A stretch of DNA of 64,000 bases. Source: a virus. This document shows positions 2,313 through 56,400 of the stretch, piece after piece (position 1 is the first letter of the stretch; every line of letters starts with the position of its first letter). The notes beneath the pieces were generated by a model. That model was not told the DNA's origin and did not search any database. It saw only the letters and a list, made by a program, of their open reading frames with translations. The position numbers and the translations under genes are program-made. The DNA lies in the IMG/VR virus record IMGVR_UViG_3300025684_000016, positions 10,842-74,841 of that record, one strand, 5' to 3'.

Positions 2313-5300
2313 TTAATTAAAACTTACACTTATACTTGTTAATGGTGTTGGATCTCCTTGGTATCTCACTAATACCAATATCTCATCGTATGTTGCATTT
2401 AAGAACATACCATCTGAGTTTCTTATCGGTAGTGTCCAAGAACCACCAGAACCCGAACCACCCGTATTACCGTAGAGATCAATATCACTACCAAATGGAT
2501 TCGTACCGTCACCATTTGCGTTTATACTATAAATAAAATTTGATAGTGTCTTTGTTGGGTCGTAGAATCGTGGATTTGAATAAACATTTGTTGATGATGA
2601 TTCAAACATAATAAGAACCGAAACTTTATTATTATTTTCTATATCATCCCAATTCGTCAACGAGTTACCACCACAATTAATTGACATACTTGTCTTAGTT
2701 CCTGAAGTGGAGAATTTTCTAACGTAGTATTTGAAGTTACTATCACTATTTGGATTAGGTAACCAATATCCGTTGTTACCACCCGGTTTAACTAAACGGT
2801 TAGGTCTAACTTGTAAGTCTTTAGGACCCATAATATTATATTCACCGTACGAATTGTCCCACGAATCTTCACCGAAAGAAAGTAAACTATCGGTTAGTTT
2901 TAGTCTTCTACCTTCACCACTGAAATTCTCAGATGTGTTAGACGAACCATCATATGTTTGTGATCTACCATAATAATGTAAACTACCACTTGATGCTGGT
3001 TGACCAAAGGTTCCTGAGGTGTGTACGGATCTACTTTCAGAATCTGATCTACTTCCACCGAATCCAGTTCCATTTATTGAAACCGATTGGTTAGCTGAGG
3101 TACCATACGAATTACCAGCACTCCAACTCAAACCTGAATTAAGTTTTATTTTATCATTAATGTGTGGAATCGTACCATTAGTTCTAAGATCTGTAAATGT
3201 TTCATCGTAAAAAACACCGTTTGTTGATATTCTACCGTTAGAAACACTTGCACTTCTTTGACCACTATTACCTGACATTGAACCGTGTGTACCGTTTTGG
3301 TACAACTTATTAAATGTACCCCCAATGGACCCACTTGCATTAAACGTTGCCGTTTGTAAGTATGGTGCCCCACTTAAAGATCTTGATGTTGCGGTTAATT
3401 GTTCCATAGAATCAATATTTGCCGAAACACCTAAATTAGTTGACCCTATACCACTTTCAATTGTCGGCATTGGTCCATATAGTATCTCAGTATTACTCTC
3501 TATTGGTGTAGTAAAATCACTTGACCCACTTGCTATAGATATCGAACTTGATATATGGTAATACCCAATATCGTCTATAGTATTACCAGCATTTAGTATT
3601 GTTGGGTTAAATACGTTCGAATATTTACCATCTTGGTAACCAGCAGGGATTAATTCAGGATTTGCAGATTCAATTCTACCAAGAGTAACTCCGTTGGTAG
3701 TTCCTGCGCCTGATTGTGTTATTAAATGATTAGAACTCGATTCTTCTAATAAAACCCTGTTATGATCAAACTTTTTAAATGTAAAAGAACCCGAAACTTT
3801 AAACGTTGTAGGTGTACCACTACTTAATCTACCTAAACCAAATAAATTACCATCGTTTGACGATCGAACACTCGTTGAACCACCATATCTACTTGTAAAT
3901 GAGTGTCTATAGTTACTATTTGTATAAAAAGTACCAAATGATCCTAATATTGTTCCACCAATAGACGCAAAACCCGCGTCAACTAACTCAAGTAATGTTG
4001 TATTTGTCGTTCCTGAAGGAAGATATCCGTTAATACCTGAATCTGTCGATGTATTGAATGTGTTTTTGGTATATCCGTTATAATATTTTGTATTTGGTGA
4101 TGCATCAGGTGCTGATGAGGATAATAACCCCGCCATGAACCTAATAATCTCCGAAACGTCTGTGTTTTCGTTAAAATTATTAAAATACGAACCATTCATG
4201 GTTCCCCACTCATTTGAGGTTGGTTGTCCCACGTTAATATTTTCAGCATGTAGTGATTTATGAACTCTAACACCGTATTTACCAGTGATTGAACCATCAG
4301 GTGAATCTAATCCACTACCTGATATTTGTAGATTCTCCGCAGTTCCATAATACGATCCTGTTTGTTGGAATATGTTACTTGCTCCAATATCTATCTGAGC
4401 TTGTTCAATTGCATCACTTAAAGATGACGAAACATCGTCTAATTCTTGATCTGTTGCGTAAGTATCATCTAAAGAACTACTAAAAAGTTCTAACCCGTCA
4501 ATCCTTGTTTCATGATCAGACCCTGTCGTTTCTAATTCGACTAACCTACCATCATGTAATGTGAATGTGGAATCAACCGATTGTGATAATTCGTTTATCG
4601 AAGATGATAATGACGATGATAAATCAGTTAGGTCATTATTAACCTGATCAAAAGATGAGGATACTGACTGTGATAAATCATTTATTGATGATGATAATGA
4701 AGACGATAATTCACTTATTGATCCTGATAATGAAGACGATAAATCTGTTAATTGTTGGTCTGTCGCAAATGTCGCATCTAATGAAGAACTAAATAACTCT
4801 AAGTCAACCAACCTACCGTCATGTAGGGTAAACGTAGAGTCGACAGATGAAGATAATTCGTTTATTGATGATGATAATGATGAGGATAAATCTGTTAAAT
4901 CCGTATTGACTTGGTCAAACGACGACGACACTGATTGTGATAAATCATTAATCGATGACGATATTGAAGACGATAAGTCACTAATAAACTCACTGTTTTC
5001 GTTAAAGGATGATGAAACAGATTGGGATAATTCATTAATTGACGAAGATATAGAAGATGATAAATCACTAATAAACTCACTGTTTTCGTTAAAAGACGAG
5101 GATACTGATTGGGATAATTCATTAATTGATGAGGATAGTGATGATGAAAGTGTTGTTAATTCACTCTCAACCACTAAATTCTCTTCACTCCCTAATTGAC
5201 CACCGATCCATCTATCGTTTGTCGTGTCCCATAATAATGAACCTGAAACAAGATTTGGACTTGTTGGGTCTTTTATTAATAATCCACCATATTTTTCTTC

Positions 5301-11972: not shown

Positions 11973-12482
11973 TTAGTCTATTCGTCTTTCAGAGATTAAG
12001 TCATTCATAGAATCAGAAAAGACATCTTCGAATTTTAAAAGTTTCTCAGTCGACTCTAACACATCATAACTAACCTTTAACATACTCGTGTTTAAGTATG
12101 TGCCTTTATTTACACCCGCAATGATCACGAAATTTAAACCTACATCAGGTAGTACACCGTCTAACCTCACCGAACCACCCTCTATGGTGATGCCAGGTCT
12201 TAGATCACCCAAATCTGATACCTGAGTACCAAAGTTCTTTATAACGTCGGATATGACCTTCTTTTGTGGGTCCTTTAATTCTAAATCCTCTTTAGAGTCA
12301 GCAATTAACCTAACCTCAACACCGTCAACTACAATAACAGTGTCTTTCATTTGTTTTTCCTCTTCTTGTTCGTTTAAAGTTTTTACACCTCTACTCGACG
12401 ACTCATTGAGTTGTCTAAGAGTATCTAACATTTTTTTTGTCTTATCGTAATTCATATGTGTATTATATTTCATTTTCCACAA
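11973..12482 (-). CDS. Hypothetical protein (true start may be a downstream Met)
   Basis: ORF within the operon; LNES/LNEQ motifs near the N-terminus. Confidence 0.7.
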   Translation of the reverse strand: MWKMKYNTHMNYDKTKKMLDTLRQLNESSSRGVKTLNEQEEEKQMKDTVIVVDGVEVRLIADSKEDLELKDPQKKVISDVIKNFGTQVSDLGDLRPGITIEGGSVRLDGVLPDVGLNFVIIAGVNKGTYLNTSMLKVSYDVLESTEKLLKFEDVFSDSMNDLISERRID

Positions 12483-13068
12483 ACATTTTAAAATTGAATG
12501 ATGGGTTTATATCTGTATAAATATTTGAAAAATTCGATTTACAAACAATTCCACCTAATTTATCGATATTTTCTATAATTCCGTTAGTTGGAACTACGTG
12601 TTTTTTGATGTCATACTCCTCACAGAGGTGGTCACACAGGGAAATTAAGGTTTTTATTTGTTCAGGATTATATCGATCCCAATAAAACTTTTCTCTCCAA
12701 CTCCTTATAAATGGTTCAGTTCTGTACGGATCTCCAATCCAATTTGAAAAAAACCCCGTTATTGTATTTTTATTTAACCACCCAAGATTCTCGATTGCAA
12801 TCTTAATTTGCTGTCTGTCGATTTTGTCAATGTCAAAAGTCTTAGACGAATATTTTACATCTAAGACTTTATATATGTCGCCCGACTTACTAATAATGAA
12901 GTGTGGAATATCTTCGTATTCACCATTTCTTCGAAATTTGATTTTTTTAACAAAATCATCTATTCGTCTTTTAGTATCATATAATAGAATTTGTTTCTTC
13001 TTATACGATCTTTTAGAATGGTTTAGGTCGTCCTTATTAATTATTTCTACGTCTCGAATTCCCAACAT
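12463..13068 (-). CDS. N-acetylmuramoyl-L-alanine amidase-like (Amidase_2/PGRP fold), catalytic residues apparently divergent
   Basis: [44 protein letters not shown] and TDINPSF match the Amidase_2 layout. Confidence 0.7.
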
Positions 13069-13357
13069 TTCTTCTAATTACTTTTTGACCAACCTTCATA
13101 AAAGGTTCTAATGGAATATCCCTATTTACCGTAGGTTCCAAATACAATTCATCAACATAAATAGTTGGTGTCGGAGTTGCACTTGGAAATGGAGTACTAC
13201 TTGGTGTTGGTGTAGGGTTCTCCGTTGATTGTGGAGTGGACGTTGGTCCTTCAGTTTGTGAAGGTATTGGTGTTGGGTTCTCCGTTGGAAATGGTGTTGG
13301 ACTACTGAAAGGTGTTGAACTTAATGTCGGACTTGGGGTTTCGGTAGTTTCTATTAT
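13037..13357 (-). CDS. Start-less 106-codon ORF: predicted -1 frameshift extension of the 437-aa membrane protein
   Basis: After the A11 run, the -1 frame reads [106 protein letters not shown]. Confidence 0.75.
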
Positions 13358-14667
13358 TTTTTTTTTTCGGGATCATCGTTTGTGATGTCCTTAGTTGTTT
13401 CGTTGATTGGTTCCTTAAAAATGAAATTAGGTTCGGGGGTTGGTGGTTCAAACCTCACCTGTGGAACTTCTTTAATTTCAACATCAACACTAAACTCAGG
13501 ACCATTATTATTAGGTAACTCGTCCAACACAACATTAACCTCTTTAAGTTTTTCTGTTGGTGTTGTTATTTGACCCGTATTTAAATCCAATTCTGCCGTT
13601 TCAACCACGTCAGGTAGTTGTTCCTTATTTACCTCTCTATATTTTTCTATAGGTACACCATTAACGTGTTGTGGTGTCTTAGACGATAAAACCAAATTAT
13701 AATCCTTATCAGGTTCTGTATCAGTTGTGTATTCTATATTTTCATTGAATTGGTGTGTAGATGGTTCTATTGTTTCTGGTTCATTAACTTCAATGTCTTT
13801 GACCATATCATTTAAAACCATATCCAACGCATGATCCTCATCCCACTTATCATCTACGTCAGTTTCAGTCTGACTATCTTCATATGGAATATCATCTAAA
13901 CCATCATTAATTGTAGTGTCGAAATCTTTGTAGTCTTCTTCCGTTGGTTCAGGTCCATCATTTAACCATGATGGTGGTTCAGGTGTTTTATTTCTTTCAG
14001 TGTCGTAATAGTGTTCACTTTTAGGTTCTTCTTCATCAGAGACTTTGGTCTTGGGTTTAGATAATATCTCATTTAATTTATCCAACTCCTCTGTTGTTGG
14101 TCGATATCTTGCAATCTCACCAACTAAATCAGATGCCTGTATTGGGTCTTCTTTAGGTTCGGTACTTGATTTGTCTTTTGTTTCATTAGAAAGTGTTCTC
14201 TCTTCATTAAACTTAACTAACATGTGAAGGAAAGATAACGATATCAGTGGTAACATACCCCCCGAAAATATAGCAAGAAAACGTCTATGTGATTGTAAAT
14301 TATCTTGTTCAACACCAACATATTCCAATATTGGACCTGTTAGATCAACCCATGATAAAAATTGTGCAGATGAAATATCAATGTATTCGAATGCGAAGAA
14401 TATATTCCCAACAAACTGAATTATTGTTACAATACCGAATGGTACGTAAACTTTAGAACCCATATTGACCGATATTGCCGCCAATGCAGATAACGCAGCA
14501 ATTTCAATACCTATTGAAAGATATAATGCCCACGACATAGGGTTTGACATTCCATACCACCCCGTTACGTGTGATATTGACACAATTGCAACCGTAATGA
14601 TAGGAACAAGAAACGCTACGTAGATAATTGTTTTAAAATTTCTACTAAACCAATTCGTACCCTTCAT
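13354..14667 (-). CDS. Four-TM membrane protein with long acidic disordered C-terminus (holin-like position)
   Basis: Four hydrophobic segments in the first ~155 aa; lies between a lipoprotein-like gene and an amidase-like gene. Confidence 0.75.
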
Positions 14668-14668
14668 A

Positions 14669-14971
14669 TTATTTTTTTAATTCACTTTCTAAGGATTCAA
14701 GTTCTTTCTCGATCTGACTTTGTCTTTGTAAATCAAACATTTTTCTGTCAGTTGCCTGTATCATTCTATGTTCACTTTTTAAACCTTCAATCTTTAATCT
14801 AAGATCAATCTCATCCTTAGTAAATGTGTGATTTTCGTTATATTCTTTTAAGTCTCTCATTTCTTTTTTGATTGAGGACATTTCTCTACTATCACCACAA
14901 CCTCTAAAGAATGTAAATATTAGTACAACAAATACAATAACGTTAAAATACTTTTCTATAAAATTTTTCAT
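14669..14971 (-). CDS. Membrane-anchored/lipoprotein coiled-coil protein (spanin-like candidate)
   Basis: N-terminal hydrophobic helix ending FFRGC, followed by a coiled coil. Confidence 0.6.
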   Translation of the reverse strand: MKNFIEKYFNVIVFVVLIFTFFRGCGDSREMSSIKKEMRDLKEYNENHTFTKDEIDLRLKIEGLKSEHRMIQATDRKMFDLQRQSQIEKELESLESELKK

Positions 14972-14987
14972 AATTCTTATTTTACCT

Positions 14988-15791
14988 TTATAAATAGTTT
15001 AATAGAGTAAAACTCTCATTTCTTAATTTCTTCATCGCCTTTTCTTTCAACTGTCGAATACGTTCTTTGGTACAACCAAACTGTTCACCGAGATCTTCTA
15101 AATTACATTCGACACCATCCAAACCAAAGTACTTAGTTATGATGATCTTTTCCTTTTCATTCAACAGATCCAATAACTTTCTCACCTGTTCTTTTGTTTC
15201 GTCTTGATTAATAACATACGATTCAGGACTAAACGAGTCATGATTTACGATGATATCAATTAATTCATCACCCTCATCATTAATGGGTGTGCTTAAATTT
15301 ACACATTTTGGTATTGAAAGTGTAGGGATCTCGAGAAGTTTTTCGGGATTTTCATATTCATCAAAGAATAACTTTTTAAGTTTCTGTTGTTCTTGTATAA
15401 TATTAGATGGGATACGTATTGTTCTTGAGTTATCATTTAGAGAGGACATTATTGCCTGTCTTATCCACCACACCGCATATGAAATAAATTTGATTTTCCT
15501 TTTAGGGTCAAACTGTTCTGCCGCCTTAATTAAACCTATGTTACCTTCAGAAATTAAATCAGGTAGATCCAACCCCTGATTTTGAAAGTTTTTAGCAACT
15601 GAGATAACAAATCTCAAATTACCTAATACTAACTGCTTTAAAAGATCCTCCCTTTCTTTTGACGAAATATTTGTTTTCTGTAATCCCTTTACTATTAATG
15701 TTAATCTTTGTTTATCAGAAACAGGTAATTTTTTGATGTCTTTAAGATAGAACTGGATCTCTTCTGTGTTTAGGAAATTTGTGTTTTGCAT
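14988..15791 (-). CDS. RpoD/sigma70-family RNA polymerase sigma factor
   Basis: Region 1.2 YLKDI; region 2 NLRFVISVAK, DLISEGNIGLIKAAEQFD, KFISYAVWWIRQAI; region 4 HTH LEDLGEQFGCTKERIRQ; no region 1.1. Confidence 0.95.
   Translation of the reverse strand: MQNTNFLNTEEIQFYLKDIKKLPVSDKQRLTLIVKGLQKTNISSKEREDLLKQLVLGNLRFVISVAKNFQNQGLDLPDLISEGNIGLIKAAEQFDPKRKIKFISYAVWWIRQAIMSSLNDNSRTIRIPSNIIQEQQKLKKLFFDEYENPEKLLEIPTLSIPKCVNLSTPINDEGDELIDIIVNHDSFSPESYVINQDETKEQVRKLLDLLNEKEKIIITKYFGLDGVECNLEDLGEQFGCTKERIRQLKEKAMKKLRNESFTLLNYL
14989..14996 (-). promoter_or_regulatory. Putative late promoter motif TATTTATA
   Basis: Overlaps the sigma gene's last codons (..NYL*), 17 nt upstream of ATG 14971. Confidence 0.55.
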
Positions 15792-16291: not shown

Positions 16292-16993
16292 TTATTTTTT
16301 GTTTAAATTAATTTTCCAAAAGATTCCACCACCGATGTAAGGTACCACACCATCTACTCCGTTGGTTTGTACACCTAAATTTAATTGATACAATTTATCA
16401 GACTTTGTCTTTAATATAAGACCACCTGATGCCGTTGAGAATATATCTTGTTTGTTTCCACCAAGATTAAAACCATAGTAAAGTTGTGTTTTAGGTAAAT
16501 CCTTCACTATTGTTGTGTTATATATAGTAGGAACTTCAAAATTCCAAACAACGTCCCTACTTAATACTTTATTTTGTGTTATAGTATCAGTAATAACCCC
16601 AAAACCTAATGTTGGATTTGGTTTAGTACCAATCGAATCTATTGTGATTTCAGGTGCAAACTCATAAGTTAACCTTAAGGTATCTTTAGTTACAAACTTA
16701 GAATAATAGTCCTTAATAATTTGTAGAGAGTCAACGTGTGTTGGTATTTTAACTATCTTCTCAACAACCCTGTCAACGTATTTAGGTACGTATGTAGGTA
16801 CTTCAACACGTTTTTCAACAAAAACAGTATCAATGGTTTTATCCACCAATTCATACTTTTTACCATCCACCTTAACGATTTCTTTAGTTCCTTGTGGTGT
16901 ATCACCACATCCCCTTAAGAGGAGGAATATAATAAGTCCGACAATGATTATTGTCTTTATATCGAGTTTAAAAAAATTGTTAGATAGTCCCAT
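16292..16993 (-). CDS. Membrane-anchored/lipoprotein with C-terminal amphipathic beta-strands
   Basis: IIIVGLIIFLLLRGC lipobox-like N-terminus; C-terminal strands LYYGFNLGG, LYQLNLGV, YIGGGIFWKI. Confidence 0.65.
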   Translation of the reverse strand: MGLSNNFFKLDIKTIIIVGLIIFLLLRGCGDTPQGTKEIVKVDGKKYELVDKTIDTVFVEKRVEVPTYVPKYVDRVVEKIVKIPTHVDSLQIIKDYYSKFVTKDTLRLTYEFAPEITIDSIGTKPNPTLGFGVITDTITQNKVLSRDVVWNFEVPTIYNTTIVKDLPKTQLYYGFNLGGNKQDIFSTASGGLILKTKSDKLYQLNLGVQTNGVDGVVPYIGGGIFWKINLNKK

Positions 16994-17007: not shown

Positions 17008-17682
17008 TTATTTTTTTTTATTAACAATGTCGTCAATAATTCCATACTTAAGTGCTTCAGTTGAAGATAACCACAAATCTCTTTTTGAGTCATTCTTTAC
17101 TGTCTCAGCTGGTTTACTACAATATTCACCAAGTAGATCAAACAGTTGATCATTCAATTTCTTCCACTCAACCATGTCGATTTCCGCGTCTTGTATGTTA
17201 CCACTAAAACCACCACTCGATTGGTGTAACATAGTTCTTGAGAACCTTAGAGAACTTCTTTTCCCTTTAGTTCCCGCACCTAATAGTATCGAACCCATTG
17301 ATGCTGCCATACCTGTGTTGACGGTACGAATATCTGAGACCACATAGTCCATTATATCCACCATAGATAAACCTGACTTAACAGATCCACCGGGTGAGTC
17401 AATATGCATTGTGATATCATTATTATCAATACTATCAAGGAACATTAATTGTGCTTGAACTATTGTTGACATCTGATCATTAACAGGTCCTGCAACCCAA
17501 ATAATCCTTTCCATCATTAGTCTTGAGAAGACATCCATTGCAGTTACGTTGAGTTGTCTCTCCTCAAGAATGTAAGGTGTTAGGTTGTTTTCAATTTGTT
17601 TATTATAGTAATGTAAGTCTAAAGAACTTATTTTGTGGTCTTTAGCATACAGATCAAAGTTTTTGAATTCTTTTGATATCAT
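17008..17682 (-). CDS. clpP: ATP-dependent Clp protease proteolytic subunit
   Basis: DVFSRLMMERII, IDSPGGSV, MAASMGS (catalytic Ser), MLHQ (His), RDLWLS. Confidence 0.95.
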   Translation of the reverse strand: MISKEFKNFDLYAKDHKISSLDLHYYNKQIENNLTPYILEERQLNVTAMDVFSRLMMERIIWVAGPVNDQMSTIVQAQLMFLDSIDNNDITMHIDSPGGSVKSGLSMVDIMDYVVSDIRTVNTGMAASMGSILLGAGTKGKRSSLRFSRTMLHQSSGGFSGNIQDAEIDMVEWKKLNDQLFDLLGEYCSKPAETVKNDSKRDLWLSSTEALKYGIIDDIVNKKK

Positions 17683-25242: not shown

Positions 25243-25271
25243 TATACAATAATATACGAAAAAAAAATGAC

Positions 25272-25307
25272 AAAAAAAAGTCCCCAGGAACACCACTCCC
25301 CGGGGAC
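25272..25307 (-). terminator. Strong intrinsic terminator
   Basis: GTCCCCGGGGA-GTGGTG-TTCCTGGGGAC (11-bp stem including G:U pairs) followed by T8. Confidence 0.85.
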
Positions 25308-53404: not shown

Positions 53405-56400
53405 AATGGTCCAAATTTTTGTATAAACTTATTCCACGCAGTTTTTCCTGTTCTTAAACCAAAATAGAAGAAGAATGGTCCACCGATTGGGATTTTCGTA
53501 TCCGCATAGTTGTCATTATCACATTCTCGTATTGGTGGTAACAGTGAACCGTCGTAGTAATAACTACTAATTTCAACCGTTGGGTCCGCAGATGCACCAC
53601 CAAATGGGTCAGGGGTAGTCATTAATCCAACATAATCCCACCCTCCTTGATATTTTGTTGAATAAATATTATCTCTATGCCAATTCTGAGATTCTGTATC
53701 AGTAGTACCTACACCACCAAAACCATAACCTTTTTTATCCCATCTATAATACGGAACCTCTTGTGCTGTTTCGGTTAGATTACCCGCAGAGTTAATACAT
53801 AATCTAAGTAGTGTACCATCTTTTTCAATGATTGAGGTGTCTTCGTCATCCTCAGAAAAAACAAAATTTTTGCTTAGTGGTCCTGCACCGTCAAAATATT
53901 CCGCACCGTTTATAGGAAAATAAGGACTCTCAGGATCCTCATCGTCATACCCATATATTCCAAGTTGTGAATTAAAATTTAATAGTTGTACAATATCACC
54001 ATCCATCGAACCCCCACCTCTTTTATCAAAAAGATCCTTCACGTGAAGTTTACCTTGTTCTTTAACCTCTTTAGATGATATTACCCATTCCATAAGATCA
54101 TTAATATCTTGATATGATGTATTCCCGATACTTTTAGAAACCGAACAATTCACATCTAATTCAGGGTCTACACATATCTCTTTAATAAACATATTTCTTG
54201 GACCTAAATCCATAATCGTTGTTGGAAATAATATTTCAGGATTAAACTGACCAATTTCTTCATTTGTACCACCAATGAAATTAGTACCATCATGTGGTGT
54301 TGACCTATAATAGTAATGGACACCATTGTCATCTACATTACGGAATATTACATCTTTACAATATTTTGCATTATTTCCACCCTTTCTTCTTCTGAATTGG
54401 AAAAAGTAAAGTGAACCATTTAACCAACTATTAGTAAACATATAAGATGTTACTCCTGCACACATAAGTTTACCAAGTAATTTTCTTCGTGAATAGTTTA
54501 AAATTAATGCCCTATTTTTACCCGCAGCCGCAACTAAACTATATACCCCATCTCTAAATTCTGAGTGACCAGATGCAGTACCGTCTTGATCTCCACTATT
54601 TGAGGTCCACCCCGCTTTTAATGCAAGTCTCCTATCTCGTTTACCCATATAACCAGTCGTTTCATCCGCATATGCACTTACAGAAGCTACAATATCGTTT
54701 ACTGGTAATGTGTAGTTACATGGGTCCTCAGTGTCAATAAAGATATCAGGATAAGGGAAAGTACCTATACTTGGATGTTGTTCCCAATAAGCATAATCCT
54801 GTGTTCCTTGTGAGTTATTTAAAAGTGCCCTTAGATTCATATCACCATCAGCATCGTAAATTGTATCGTATTTTTCACAACCACTCTCCGACAAATCAGG
54901 TGGATTCTCAGTCGTTACCAATTCCGAAAGAAAGTAAATGGTGTGAATGGTGATGTTGTTTGCGCTTGAAAGTGCTGTATTCGGATAGGATAGTGGTAAA
55001 GTCGATTGTGTATCCGCACCTTGAGCACCATAGACATCATTATGTATTTTTGATGCAAGACCAAGAAAAGTAATCGTAGATTGAGGACCACCTTGGTTTA
55101 GTCCTTCATATGTGGACCCATACCCAACCCAAGCATACCCATAAGTTGCCGGTGTTATGGTTATCGGATTTCCATCATTATCAGTCCCCATTACCACGGC
55201 AGTTAAAGTGTATTTTATTATATAATTTTTTATTATACTACCACCACTAATTGTCACTGTTAAATCAGTATTAATTAAGGGATCCGAACTGTTTGGATCA
55301 AAAGAATGTGAAGAAGTGACGTTTGTTTGAACAGACGTAAGTCCTATAGTGGCATCCGCGAGATTATTAGGTGGGTCTGGTGTTTCAAAACTATAAGTAA
55401 AAGACCCACCCGTACCACTTGCTTCACCAGAGTTAGGGTCTAAAGTACATTCATAACAATCAGGGTAATTAATTAAACTCAACCTTCTTAGAGTGGTTAT
55501 TTGTATAGATCTTGCAAATTGTGCTATCCTATTTGAAATACCTTCAAACGGTCTCCATTTAAATGGCCAACCAAGATAGAAACTATATAAAGCCTCACTC
55601 AAGTCGAATAAGAATTCAACAATAAAATCAATTGCAAACTGAGTAACAACCAAATATATCCTCTCTAAGAAATTTAATATGATTATTATAAGAAACTTAA
55701 ACTTATGGTTTCTAACCGCATCTGTAATTGGAAAGTACTCATTATTATTCGCACAATCTTCTTCGATAGAAGGTTGTATTTCTTTAATTCCAATGAAAGA
55801 TTCATTTCTATCTTTCACAAAGAACGGAAATGTCCTTTCTCCCCAAGATTTATTGTGGTATTGATTAATGAATGAGGAAACTGTATAAATCCTATTATAT
55901 CTAAATGAATAAAAATAATCGTTTGAGAATCCATCGGCATTATTAACACCACCTATATCATCAAGTGCCTCAGTCGGATAATCATCAATTTTATCTGAAA
56001 ATGCATATGATTTTGGATTGATATTAGTACCTAACTGATATTCTTTAATTTGTGGTACCAAATATTTACCCCTGTACTGTTTCTTTTGACCATTATCATT
56101 TTGTAATGATAATCTGAATCGATAAGTGGATCTTGTTGCAATACCTTTATTACGGTCTTTTGTTGTTACGGTCTCACCAAATTCATTAGTGATGACATAT
56201 CTCATATTCATTGGTACCCTAAAAAAGAAGTTACCATTTTCATCTATTTCGGAGTCTAATTGTACCGCTTCAAGATGTGGTCTACGATAATTTAAAGTCC
56301 CATCCACATTTTTATCATACTCACCAGTAAATCGTATCGCTTCGATATTACCCTCACCAGTTATAAGTGAACATTTTTCACCCATTTGGTTGTCAACATT

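Follow-up and report, generated by a model that had tools for sequence, protein, structure and literature searches.

A conserved A-run and an out-of-frame extension in a membrane-protein gene of large uncultured phages: a probable site of transcriptional slippage

To our knowledge, the bacterial genes in which programmed transcriptional slippage has been demonstrated are few: Thermus dnaX, genes of Shigella type III secretion, tssM and IS elements. Bacterial RNA polymerase slips efficiently on runs of at least nine A or T, and a hairpin adjacent to the run on its 5' side stimulates slippage (PMC5009743). The closest precedent for the phage locus described here is tssM1 of C. rodentium, likewise an inner-membrane gene broken just past an A11. 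Slippage of 20-25% is reported for it, extra A's in the mRNA giving the full-length protein beside a truncated form, and both forms are needed; ribosomal stimulators are absent from its vicinity (Gueguen et al., 2014; PMC4256274). In tssM3 of Y. pseudotuberculosis, according to the same source, the run is in frame and slippage yields the short form, which mirrors the continuous phage homologues that carry an in-frame A10. The phage gene differs from tssM in that it encodes an unrelated protein family and is known from sequence alone. Furthermore, poly-A is described as rare among tssM genes, whereas the phage site is conserved in a family that numbers thousands of proteins, and a predicted hairpin abuts the phage run, whereas the part of the article at hand mentions none for tssM1 (PMC4256274).

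Two other systems share single features with the phage locus. In Shigella flexneri, a C-terminal extension of spa13 of about 110 aa runs into the beginning of the following gene, spa32, the expression of which it controls, a geometry that is the same as in the phage; as described there, spa13/spa32, like mxiE, mxiA and spa33, belong to a type III secretion operon and carry T or A runs of about nine (Penno et al., 2006; PMC5009743). In Roseiflexus IS630, an enabling nascent-RNA hairpin lies directly 5' of the slip motif, but this motif is reported as T5C5 with one base lost, whereas +1 or -2 is needed here (Penno et al., 2015; PMC5009743). Compared with IS630, the phage A-run is long enough to slip unaided. 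Phage genes recoded near the end of an ORF include lambda G/GT and other tail-assembly-chaperone shifts, in which two products with a common N-terminus are made at a set ratio by entry into the -1 frame. Those shifts are ribosomal, use short heptamers such as G_GGA_AAG and concern virion-assembly genes, whereas the present gene encodes a membrane protein outside the structural module and carries a homopolymer of 9-11 nt. In the literature searched, we found neither a published case of transcriptional slippage in a DNA-phage gene nor a published description of this membrane-gene family.

The interrupted gene and its -1 extension

The gene lies on the minus strand of a stretch of 64,000 nucleotides of DNA from an uncultured marine giant phage, which is called the window (Table 1). 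A preliminary description had placed an A_AAA_AAA heptamer within the A11 and tandem stops after it, in the context CCC GAA AAA AAA AAA TAA TAG; the sequence reads exactly so at the positions given. The A11 is the sole homopolymer of at least 10 in the 64-kb window, two others being 9 long.

Table 1. Positions of the features of the locus within the window
Feature	Position	Strand	Remarks
N-terminal helical membrane domain, 165 aa	14173..14667	-	55-82% identical to 48 homologues from related loci
0-frame ORF, short isoform, 437 aa	13354..14667	-	TAA stop 13356-13354 included
Predicted nascent-RNA hairpin, GGACAUC-ACAAAC-GAUGAUCC	13370..13390	-	-5.8 kcal/mol; CG spacer before the A-run
A11, putative slippage run	13357..13367	-	T11 on the + strand
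Tandem 0-frame stops TAA TAG	13351..13356	-	directly 3' of the run
-1-frame extension, 106 codons + TAA	13037..13357	-	Pro/Thr/Ser-rich linker, then conserved tail
Downstream Amidase_2-fold gene, 201 aa	12463..13068	-	ATG 13068-13066, inside the extension end

In the 437-aa protein the membrane domain (residues 1-165) precedes a long, acidic and variable region. The domain contains invariant polar residues (S30, S32, H33, E55, Q84 and N88) and a nearly invariant H148. The protein had been described as having four transmembrane segments, which is approximately right: the AlphaFold2 model (pLDDT 74.6) has five helices within residues 4-164, one of which is short (101-116). The N-terminal region has 3122 homologues. 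No match to the domain was found in Pfam or PHROGs, nor among solved folds (best Foldseek E 1.9), and its matches in the protein atlas were unnamed viral hypothetical clusters only. With the region as query, blastn found no match in 50,697 phage records, and the sole tblastn match of the membrane domain (30% identity) was to an unannotated 462-kb uncultured phage. Neighbouring genes encode a sigma-70 factor, ClpP and an SbcC-like protein.

Between 13372 and 13040 the -1 frame contains no stop; counted from the ATA at 13357, it runs for 106 codons to the TAA at 13039-13037, in agreement with the length and stop first proposed. The long isoform would thus be 543 aa. As had also been noted, the extension has a Pro/Thr/Ser-rich linker with a duplicated TENPTP and an Arg-rich end, its first ATG is late (in FMK, 20 codons from the extension end), and it fills the 285-nt gap (13069-13353) before the amidase-like gene. 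This gap is the only large one in the gene row, other minus-strand neighbours being at most about 60 nt apart. The chance of 106 open codons is about 1e-4, given that the base composition of the strand implies stops at an estimated frequency of about 0.077 per codon; after the window's 46 long ORFs, the -1 frame stays open for a median of 11 codons.

Two related loci, L011 and L012, differ in the extension at 18, 16 and 42 sites of codon positions 1, 2 and 3, respectively. In an RNA library, X15, six of the seven variants of the extension are at third positions (our own count), and one variant carries a 3-nt insertion that keeps the frame. Because of this third-position bias and of the frame-keeping insertion, the extension is, as judged from substitution patterns, under coding selection. 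Independent translation of the extension was considered and rejected: ATG, GTG and TTG are all absent from its first ~70 codons, and continuous homologues exist. A match of the extension to phrog_15511 (E=3e-5) covered the Pro/Thr-rich part only and was taken as compositional. An Rfam scan over 12000-15000 gave nothing meaningful, and promoter-like and terminator-like sites were not above shuffled controls; these scans therefore give no indication that the gap holds an RNA gene or a transcription unit of its own. The RNA runs cover the window in part only; coverage by one of them, X17, is confined to 13027-13276, outside the A-run.

Conservation of the interrupted arrangement

Whether the run is A11 or A12 had been raised in the preliminary description. 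A11 was found again when the probable source run was assembled independently (X1), in a contig from another, independent marine sample (X4, at a depth of about 3) and in a 48-nt contig from an RNA library; these independent assemblies give A11 and not A12. On this comparison, the A11 interruption is not an assembly error.

The six IMG/VR relatives first compared (about 50% identical) all have G-A10-T followed by a stop within 1-2 codons, and a -1 frame open for 95-135 codons that ends RNVGN[ST]RRRNN(R). More broadly, 52 of the 77 usable IMG/VR loci are recoded like the window; a further 5 retain the run but have their extension shortened. All 34 loci with a readable gene end in other marine assemblies (TARA, JGI, ENA) are recoded. 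The terminus EKK[KN], in some cases with one more residue (Q or Y), is found in 103/120 best protein clusters. The layout shared by some 90 related loci and some 100 protein clusters is an unbroken A9-A11, a stop 0-4 codons on and the -1 tail RNVGNSRRR. At 39 unique IMG/VR sites the run is A9 (2), A10 (27) or A11 (10), never shorter and with no AAG interruption, and in the 34 TARA, JGI and ENA loci it is also A9-A11 and never shorter.

The same tail is found within one continuous ORF in the loci L016, L026, L051 and L086 and in the protein cluster P0103; a search with the extension part of P0103 gave, apart from many low-complexity Pro/Thr proteins, P0103 itself only. Since continuous homologues encode the same tail, the extension belongs to the membrane protein. 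In the family tree the recoded state is present on both sides of the midpoint root, and the continuous forms make up 3-4 nested lineages. In conclusion, A-run, stop and open -1 frame are retained together in nearly all homologues, and this comparative evidence strongly supports the original proposal of a programmed -1 frameshift or transcriptional slippage that gives a second isoform 106 aa longer. Of the two refuting outcomes named in the preliminary description, an A12 or homologues that are single continuous ORFs, neither was borne out by the assemblies and homologues compared. As far as sequence comparison can tell, the A11 represents a recoding site that is both conserved and selected in this gene family, whose members come from large uncultured phages of marine and fresh waters.

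A predicted hairpin abutting the run and the probable mechanism of recoding

A predicted hairpin abuts the run at 37 of 38 unique sites, with a mean energy of -5.4 kcal/mol; for control positions within these genes the mean is -1.5 kcal/mol (P = 5e-17, Mann-Whitney). Stem sequences differ from clade to clade, and in the relatives L101 and L103, which share about 64% protein identity with the window, the stem has undergone a compensatory change from CAUC/GAUG to CAAC/GUUG. In-frame A9 and A10 runs of the same gene family are mostly without such a hairpin. In the window itself the hairpin is of modest stability (-5.8 kcal/mol; 2-nt spacer), and in two close relatives a stem mismatch weakens it to -1.4 kcal/mol; both points count against slippage by the polymerase. 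On the 3' side, no conserved stem-loop or pseudoknot was found in 80-nt folds (mean z -0.75), no flanking sequence is conserved, and the downstream minimum free energy in the window's clade ranges from 0 to -9 kcal/mol.

The locus thus has a run of at least nine, a conserved run and out-of-frame extension and, as an optional feature of slippage sites, a predicted 5'-adjacent hairpin. Polymerase slippage is favoured because of this upstream hairpin, of a run that is never shorter than nine and of the lack of a conserved downstream structure, and on these sequence features it is the most likely mechanism. Standard decoding would give the 437-aa protein with its helical membrane domain and acidic tail. 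The 11 A:T pairs would span the whole 9-10 bp RNA:DNA hybrid, so that a multisubunit RNA polymerase could slip on them and some transcripts would carry one more A (or two fewer). A hairpin forming directly behind the run should aid this slippage, as in Roseiflexus IS630. Ordinary translation of the slipped transcripts would then enter the -1 frame and produce the 543-aa form, with its Pro/Thr linker and conserved basic C-terminal segment. In RNA library X15 the two main contigs end exactly at the run, whereas DNA contigs cross it (assembled contigs of one study), which we take as a weak hint of slippage in RNA. Strain mixture or RT-PCR stutter could also cause such a break.

The same protein would be made by a ribosomal shift on mRNA that keeps the A11, either by a tandem -1 slip on A_AAA_AAA, perhaps aided by the stop, or by sliding on AAA codons. 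This explanation, which we hold to be unlikely, is the one that best survives besides polymerase slippage. AAG is the best bacterial shift site, and in a few lineages (L024, L056, L060) the run ends in AAG. Every lineage has the heptamer in the right phase, whichever of the two observed run phases is present, and the 0-frame stop is always 0-4 codons away; ribosome sliding on poly(A) is moreover documented in E. coli (PMC4363877). The ribosome may accordingly have a share in the shift or even account for most of it. A heptamer would suffice for the ribosome, yet no lineage has fewer than nine A's or a synonymous AAG interruption of the run, and a conserved hairpin or pseudoknot is missing downstream. 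Hairpins that abut a shift site on its 5' side attenuate, rather than stimulate, -1 ribosomal shifts. At this locus the conserved element is precisely a 5'-abutting hairpin, a known stimulator of polymerase slippage (PMC5009743).

Replication slippage in the tract could instead generate phage sub-populations that are 'on' (continuous) or 'off' (interrupted). A10-A11 tracts are mutable, and P0103 reads EAEKKKL straight through where its nearest relatives, P0051 and P0102, end EAEKKN. Such phase variation at the DNA level is nevertheless very improbable: the interrupted state is the consensus in nearly all of about 190 loci and clusters, continuous forms being limited to 5 IMG/VR loci and P0103; DNA contigs from two samples cross the run without alternative forms; the fused lineage compared base by base at the site, L016 (A10-C-TTA), has an extra non-A base after the run and not a longer tract; and the hairpin would have no role. 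Finally, homopolymers are error-prone on some platforms and the window is a single metagenomic contig, but an error of sequencing or assembly is hardly credible, and neither is decay into a pseudogene that has ceased to make the extension, given that the same interruption with the same -1 shift recurs in many studies and platforms across ~50% protein divergence, that the frame relation holds while the run varies (A9, A10, A11), and that substitutions in the extension are biased to third positions and its tail is conserved.

Taken as a whole, the data are likely to be explained by a conserved, selected recoding site at which polymerase slippage yields 437- and 543-aa forms, with probable coupling to the next gene. 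What the sequences show is the site and its conservation, the selection for coding in the extension, the hairpin and the overlap with the next gene; that the polymerase rather than the ribosome slips, in what ratio the two forms are made, and that the next gene is coupled is what we infer from these features.

The downstream gene and possible functions of the two forms

The gene that follows matches Amidase_2 (Pfam PF01510, E=4.9e-7, 30.6 bits for a cut-off of 26). The AlphaFold2 model of its product (pLDDT 87) matches AmiD, AmpDh2 and phage amidases in Foldseek (E about 1e-5, probability 1.00), and single-sequence and profile searches against PDB sequences gave no match. An alignment of 35 sequences contains no invariant His or Cys. 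The stop of the extension lies 29 nt after the ATG of this gene, and the overlap is -29 or -32 nt in almost all relatives. Because the extension ORF ends so close past that ATG, slippage probably sets, by translational coupling, how many ribosomes reach the start of the Amidase_2-fold gene.

It had been suggested that the two isoforms could act as a holin/antiholin-like switch of lysis timing, an idea for which the analysis provided no direct support. As in the lambda S105/S107 pair, two membrane-protein isoforms differ by a charged terminus and an amidase-fold gene adjoins. In holin pairs, however, the isoforms vary at the N-terminus through alternative starts, and the phage gene described here has transcription and replication genes around it. 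With about 70-220 aa, known holins are far smaller than the present protein (437 or 543 aa). The small size, recognised family, dual starts and lysis cassette expected of holin/antiholin pairs were not found, and the N-terminal domain matched none of the holin families of Pfam and PHROGs.

A different role may be proposed, albeit tentatively. The hairpin and A-run would form a stoichiometry device: ribosomes would pass through the extension to the ATG embedded in it on slipped transcripts only, and by this means the amidase-fold protein would be made at about 1:1 with the long isoform and captured by its basic tail at the cytoplasmic face of the membrane, the excess of short isoform remaining untethered. 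If true, giant phages would possess a timer or ratio control, set by the polymerase, for a membrane-tethered cell-wall-binding or lytic module.

For annotation, the consequence is that gene callers truncate the protein and leave an apparently empty gap of 170-480 nt. Thousands of giant-phage proteins from marine and fresh waters make up the family, and the hairpin and A-run module is kept across deep divergence. Natural 'fused' variants serve as controls, so that the family offers a comparative system for the effects of run length and hairpin on slippage frequency, and the neighbouring amidase-fold gene may be controlled via the slip.

The A11 run and the extension of the membrane protein

The ORF end, the A11 run, the open -1 frame and the filling of the following gap were all confirmed as first described (see table). 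The extension exactly fills a gap of 285 nt ahead of the next gene, and the spacing of other neighbours in this minus-strand gene row is at most about 60 nt. None of ATG, GTG and TTG occurs in its first ~70 codons. Its product consists of a Pro/Thr/Ser-rich linker followed by a C-terminal segment. The chance of so long an open stretch, estimated from base composition, is about 1e-4, and the -1 frame after the window's long ORFs stays open for a median of 11 codons. Whether one A is added to the transcript or the ribosome shifts by -1, the product would be an identical 543-aa protein; loss of one A would lead into the +1 frame (window 13357 onward) and to a third product, with a tail of 17 residues.

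Features of the slip site, its surroundings and its relatives
Feature	Position	Strand	Remarks
Membrane-protein ORF, short form	14667..13354	-	437 aa; ends CCC GAA AAA AAA AAA TAA TAG
Predicted hairpin	13390-13370	-	GGACAUC-ACAAAC-GAUGAUCC, then CG, then A11
A11 run	13367-13357	-	sole homopolymer of at least 10 within the 64-kb window
Open -1 frame	13372 to 13040	-	106 sense codons from ATA at 13357, then TAA 13039-13037
Amidase-fold gene	12463..13068	-	downstream gene
Small proteins	14669-14971; 16292-16993	-	N-terminal hydrophobic helix, then lipobox-like RGCGD[ST]
T9 run	17011-17019	+	overlaps clpP ORF 3' end; just upstream of start of ORF 16292..16993
A9 plus A8	near 25259-25279		besides this A9 and the T9, the window has no further run of 9
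Linker-like matches	G000:C1:41938-41992 and 54862-54912 (L002, L003)		76-85% identity to query bases 286-341
In-frame A10 runs	L016:3258 and 3537; L026:3291 and 3850; L051:3713; L086:3733		continuous-ORF members

The extension codes for protein. Its linker and tail are also present in continuous homologues, including the protein cluster P0103 (551 aa), and in the window's clade its substitutions fall chiefly at third codon positions. Between the related loci L011 and L012 it showed 18, 16 and 42 differences at codon positions 1, 2 and 3 (codon changes: 32 synonymous, 23 non-synonymous); a contig from the X15 marine metatranscriptome differed at seven positions of the extension, six of them third positions and four synonymous. 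Part of the linker DNA recurs in similar form at two further sites of this phage record (see table); different genes share linkers.

Conservation in the family

Database searches gave 3122 homologues of the N-terminal membrane domain, and 103 of the 120 best protein clusters end in EKK[KN], some with one more residue. The A-run, stop and open -1 frame, which the preliminary description proposed to look for in homologues, proved to be conserved in 52 of 77 usable IMG/VR loci and in all 34 metagenome loci with a readable gene end. In these 52 loci an A9-A11 run is followed 0-4 codons later by the 0-frame stop, and the -1 extension (55-161 codons) ends with RNVGN[ST].RR..R. Five other IMG/VR loci retain the run but have a shorter extension, five, representing four distinct lineages, have a continuous ORF with the same tail in frame, and 15, all of one clade, encode short proteins and have no run. 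Together with the coding character of the extension in relatives, this layout supports the proposal that frameshifting or transcriptional slippage at A11 extends the protein.

In a maximum-likelihood tree built from the membrane domain, recoded members stood on either side of the midpoint root, and continuous forms made up three to four separate nested lineages. The required shift is into the -1 frame in every case, irrespective of run length or codon phase. A11 is derived from A10 through a change in the base that follows the run (TTA to ATA, TCA to ACA), so that the frame relation is preserved. Continuous members still hold one or two in-frame A10 runs, mostly with no abutting hairpin. Four loci of one lineage (L052, L058, L063 and L072) keep A11 (about 3666-3748) with an extension of only 37-41 codons that ends with YWE.DDKK, near the ATG of the amidase-like gene; L052 has an NVRN remnant in the same frame after the new stops.

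Probable transcriptional slippage and its alternatives

The shift at A11 probably results from hairpin-assisted transcriptional slippage. RNA polymerase is favoured by the length of the run, an upstream hairpin, the lack of a downstream stimulator and a weak hint from RNA. A ribosomal slippery heptamer requires only seven bases. At 39 unique sites the run was A9 (2), A10 (27) or A11 (10), never shorter than A9 and never broken by a synonymous AAG. Bacterial RNA polymerase slips efficiently on runs of at least nine, which is how far its RNA:DNA hybrid extends (PMC5009743).

At 37 of 38 unique sites a hairpin is predicted with its 3' arm ending 0-2 nt ahead of the run; the mean energy is -5.4 kcal/mol, compared with -1.5 for 760 control positions within these genes (Mann-Whitney p=5e-17). 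Stems vary by clade (CAGG/CCUG, CUUCC/GGAAG, CUUUAUCUG/CAGAUGAAG, CUUCGUCA/UGACGAAG and others), and relatives L101 and L103 carry a compensatory change from CAUC/GAUG to CAAC/GUUG. Such a hairpin is mostly absent from in-frame A9/A10 runs at other sites in the family, those of continuous genes among them. In Roseiflexus IS630, polymerase slippage is known to be stimulated by a nascent-RNA hairpin immediately 5' of the slip motif (PMC5009743), the position predicted here. Downstream, folds of the next 80 nt were unremarkable (mean z -0.75), and in the window's clade this stretch is almost without structure. Finally, the two main X15 RNA contigs end exactly at either end of the run, with one extra letter left unaligned in each, unlike DNA contigs, which pass through it; such a graph break is expected from heterogeneous run length and, coming from assembled contigs of a single study, is a weak hint.

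With a lower probability than polymerase slippage, the ribosome may make or contribute to the shift: A_AAA_AAA is in phase throughout, the 0-frame stop follows soon after the run, and ribosome sliding is possible on iterated AAA codons (PMC4363877). DNA-level phase variation of the run is unlikely.

The split of the ORF at A11 is not an assembly error, and an artefact is an unlikely source of it. The question raised earlier, A11 or A12, was answered from assemblies: when the probable source run was independently assembled, the homopolymer was crossed without a gap, as it was in a contig from another marine sample, hence both have A11. Fourteen loci from other assemblies (TARA, JGI, ENA; best aligned segments 63-99% identical to the query protein) without exception have A11, then T or C, then a 0-frame stop, with -1 extensions of 103-117 codons; the common C-terminal end was present in all 12 with a contig that covers the entire extension. 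A 48-nt X15 contig (depth about 7; window 13351-13385) reads A11, TAATAG and an extra TAG, a 3-nt insertion that leaves the -1 frame open. The sequencing runs that hold the window sequence are marine metagenomes, and the parent IMG/VR virus record (74.8 kb, rated 22% complete) points to a phage of about 300 kb or larger.

The two isoforms and the amidase-fold neighbour

Residues 1-165 of the membrane protein were modelled as five helices (AF2, pLDDT 74.6) with invariant polar residues inside them; this domain had no match in Pfam, PHROGs, PDB or named protein-atlas clusters. The remainder of the short form, beyond residue 165, is acidic and varies strongly. The downstream protein has an Amidase_2/PGRP fold (Pfam E=4.9e-7; AF2 pLDDT 87; Foldseek matches to AmiD, AmpDh2 and phage amidases). 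An alignment of 35 sequences contained no invariant His or Cys, so the protein may be enzymatically inactive. Its zinc triad may have been lost, in which case it would be a PGRP-like binder. Surrounding genes encode a sigma-70 factor, ClpP, an SbcC-like ATPase and a DNA methyltransferase, a set that does not obviously form a lysis cassette. The holin/antiholin idea therefore has no backing other than adjacency to the amidase fold. The 100-aa coiled-coil protein (14669-14971) encoded directly upstream of the membrane-protein gene has a weak DivIC-like match.

In almost every relative the ATG of the amidase-fold gene is found 29 or 32 nt before the extension ORF ends. The clade of short proteins has this ATG 5 nt ahead of the membrane-protein stop, and in the lineage with a shortened extension the extension stop is near it. 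Full-length translation of the membrane protein thus reaches the start of the amidase-fold gene in all forms, and in recoded forms only shifted decoding would carry translation that far. We infer that the extension and this gene may be translationally coupled; their overlap has the same geometry as Shigella spa13/spa32, in which the gene that follows is under the control of slippage (PMC5009743).

The mechanism is of a known kind. Its nearest known parallel is C. rodentium tssM1, an inner-membrane protein gene with A11 ahead of a premature stop, in which 20-25% of transcripts carry extra A's and both forms are needed (PMC4256274). A Yersinia tssM relative has the run in frame (PMC4256274), mirrored here by continuous members with in-frame A10 runs, where slippage would yield truncated forms, as in Yersinia tssM3. 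Our searches found no literature description of the gene family, its phage setting or the regular pairing of A-run and abutting hairpin. Our best functional guess is that the two isoforms would combine ratio control of a membrane tether with translational gating of the amidase-fold gene.
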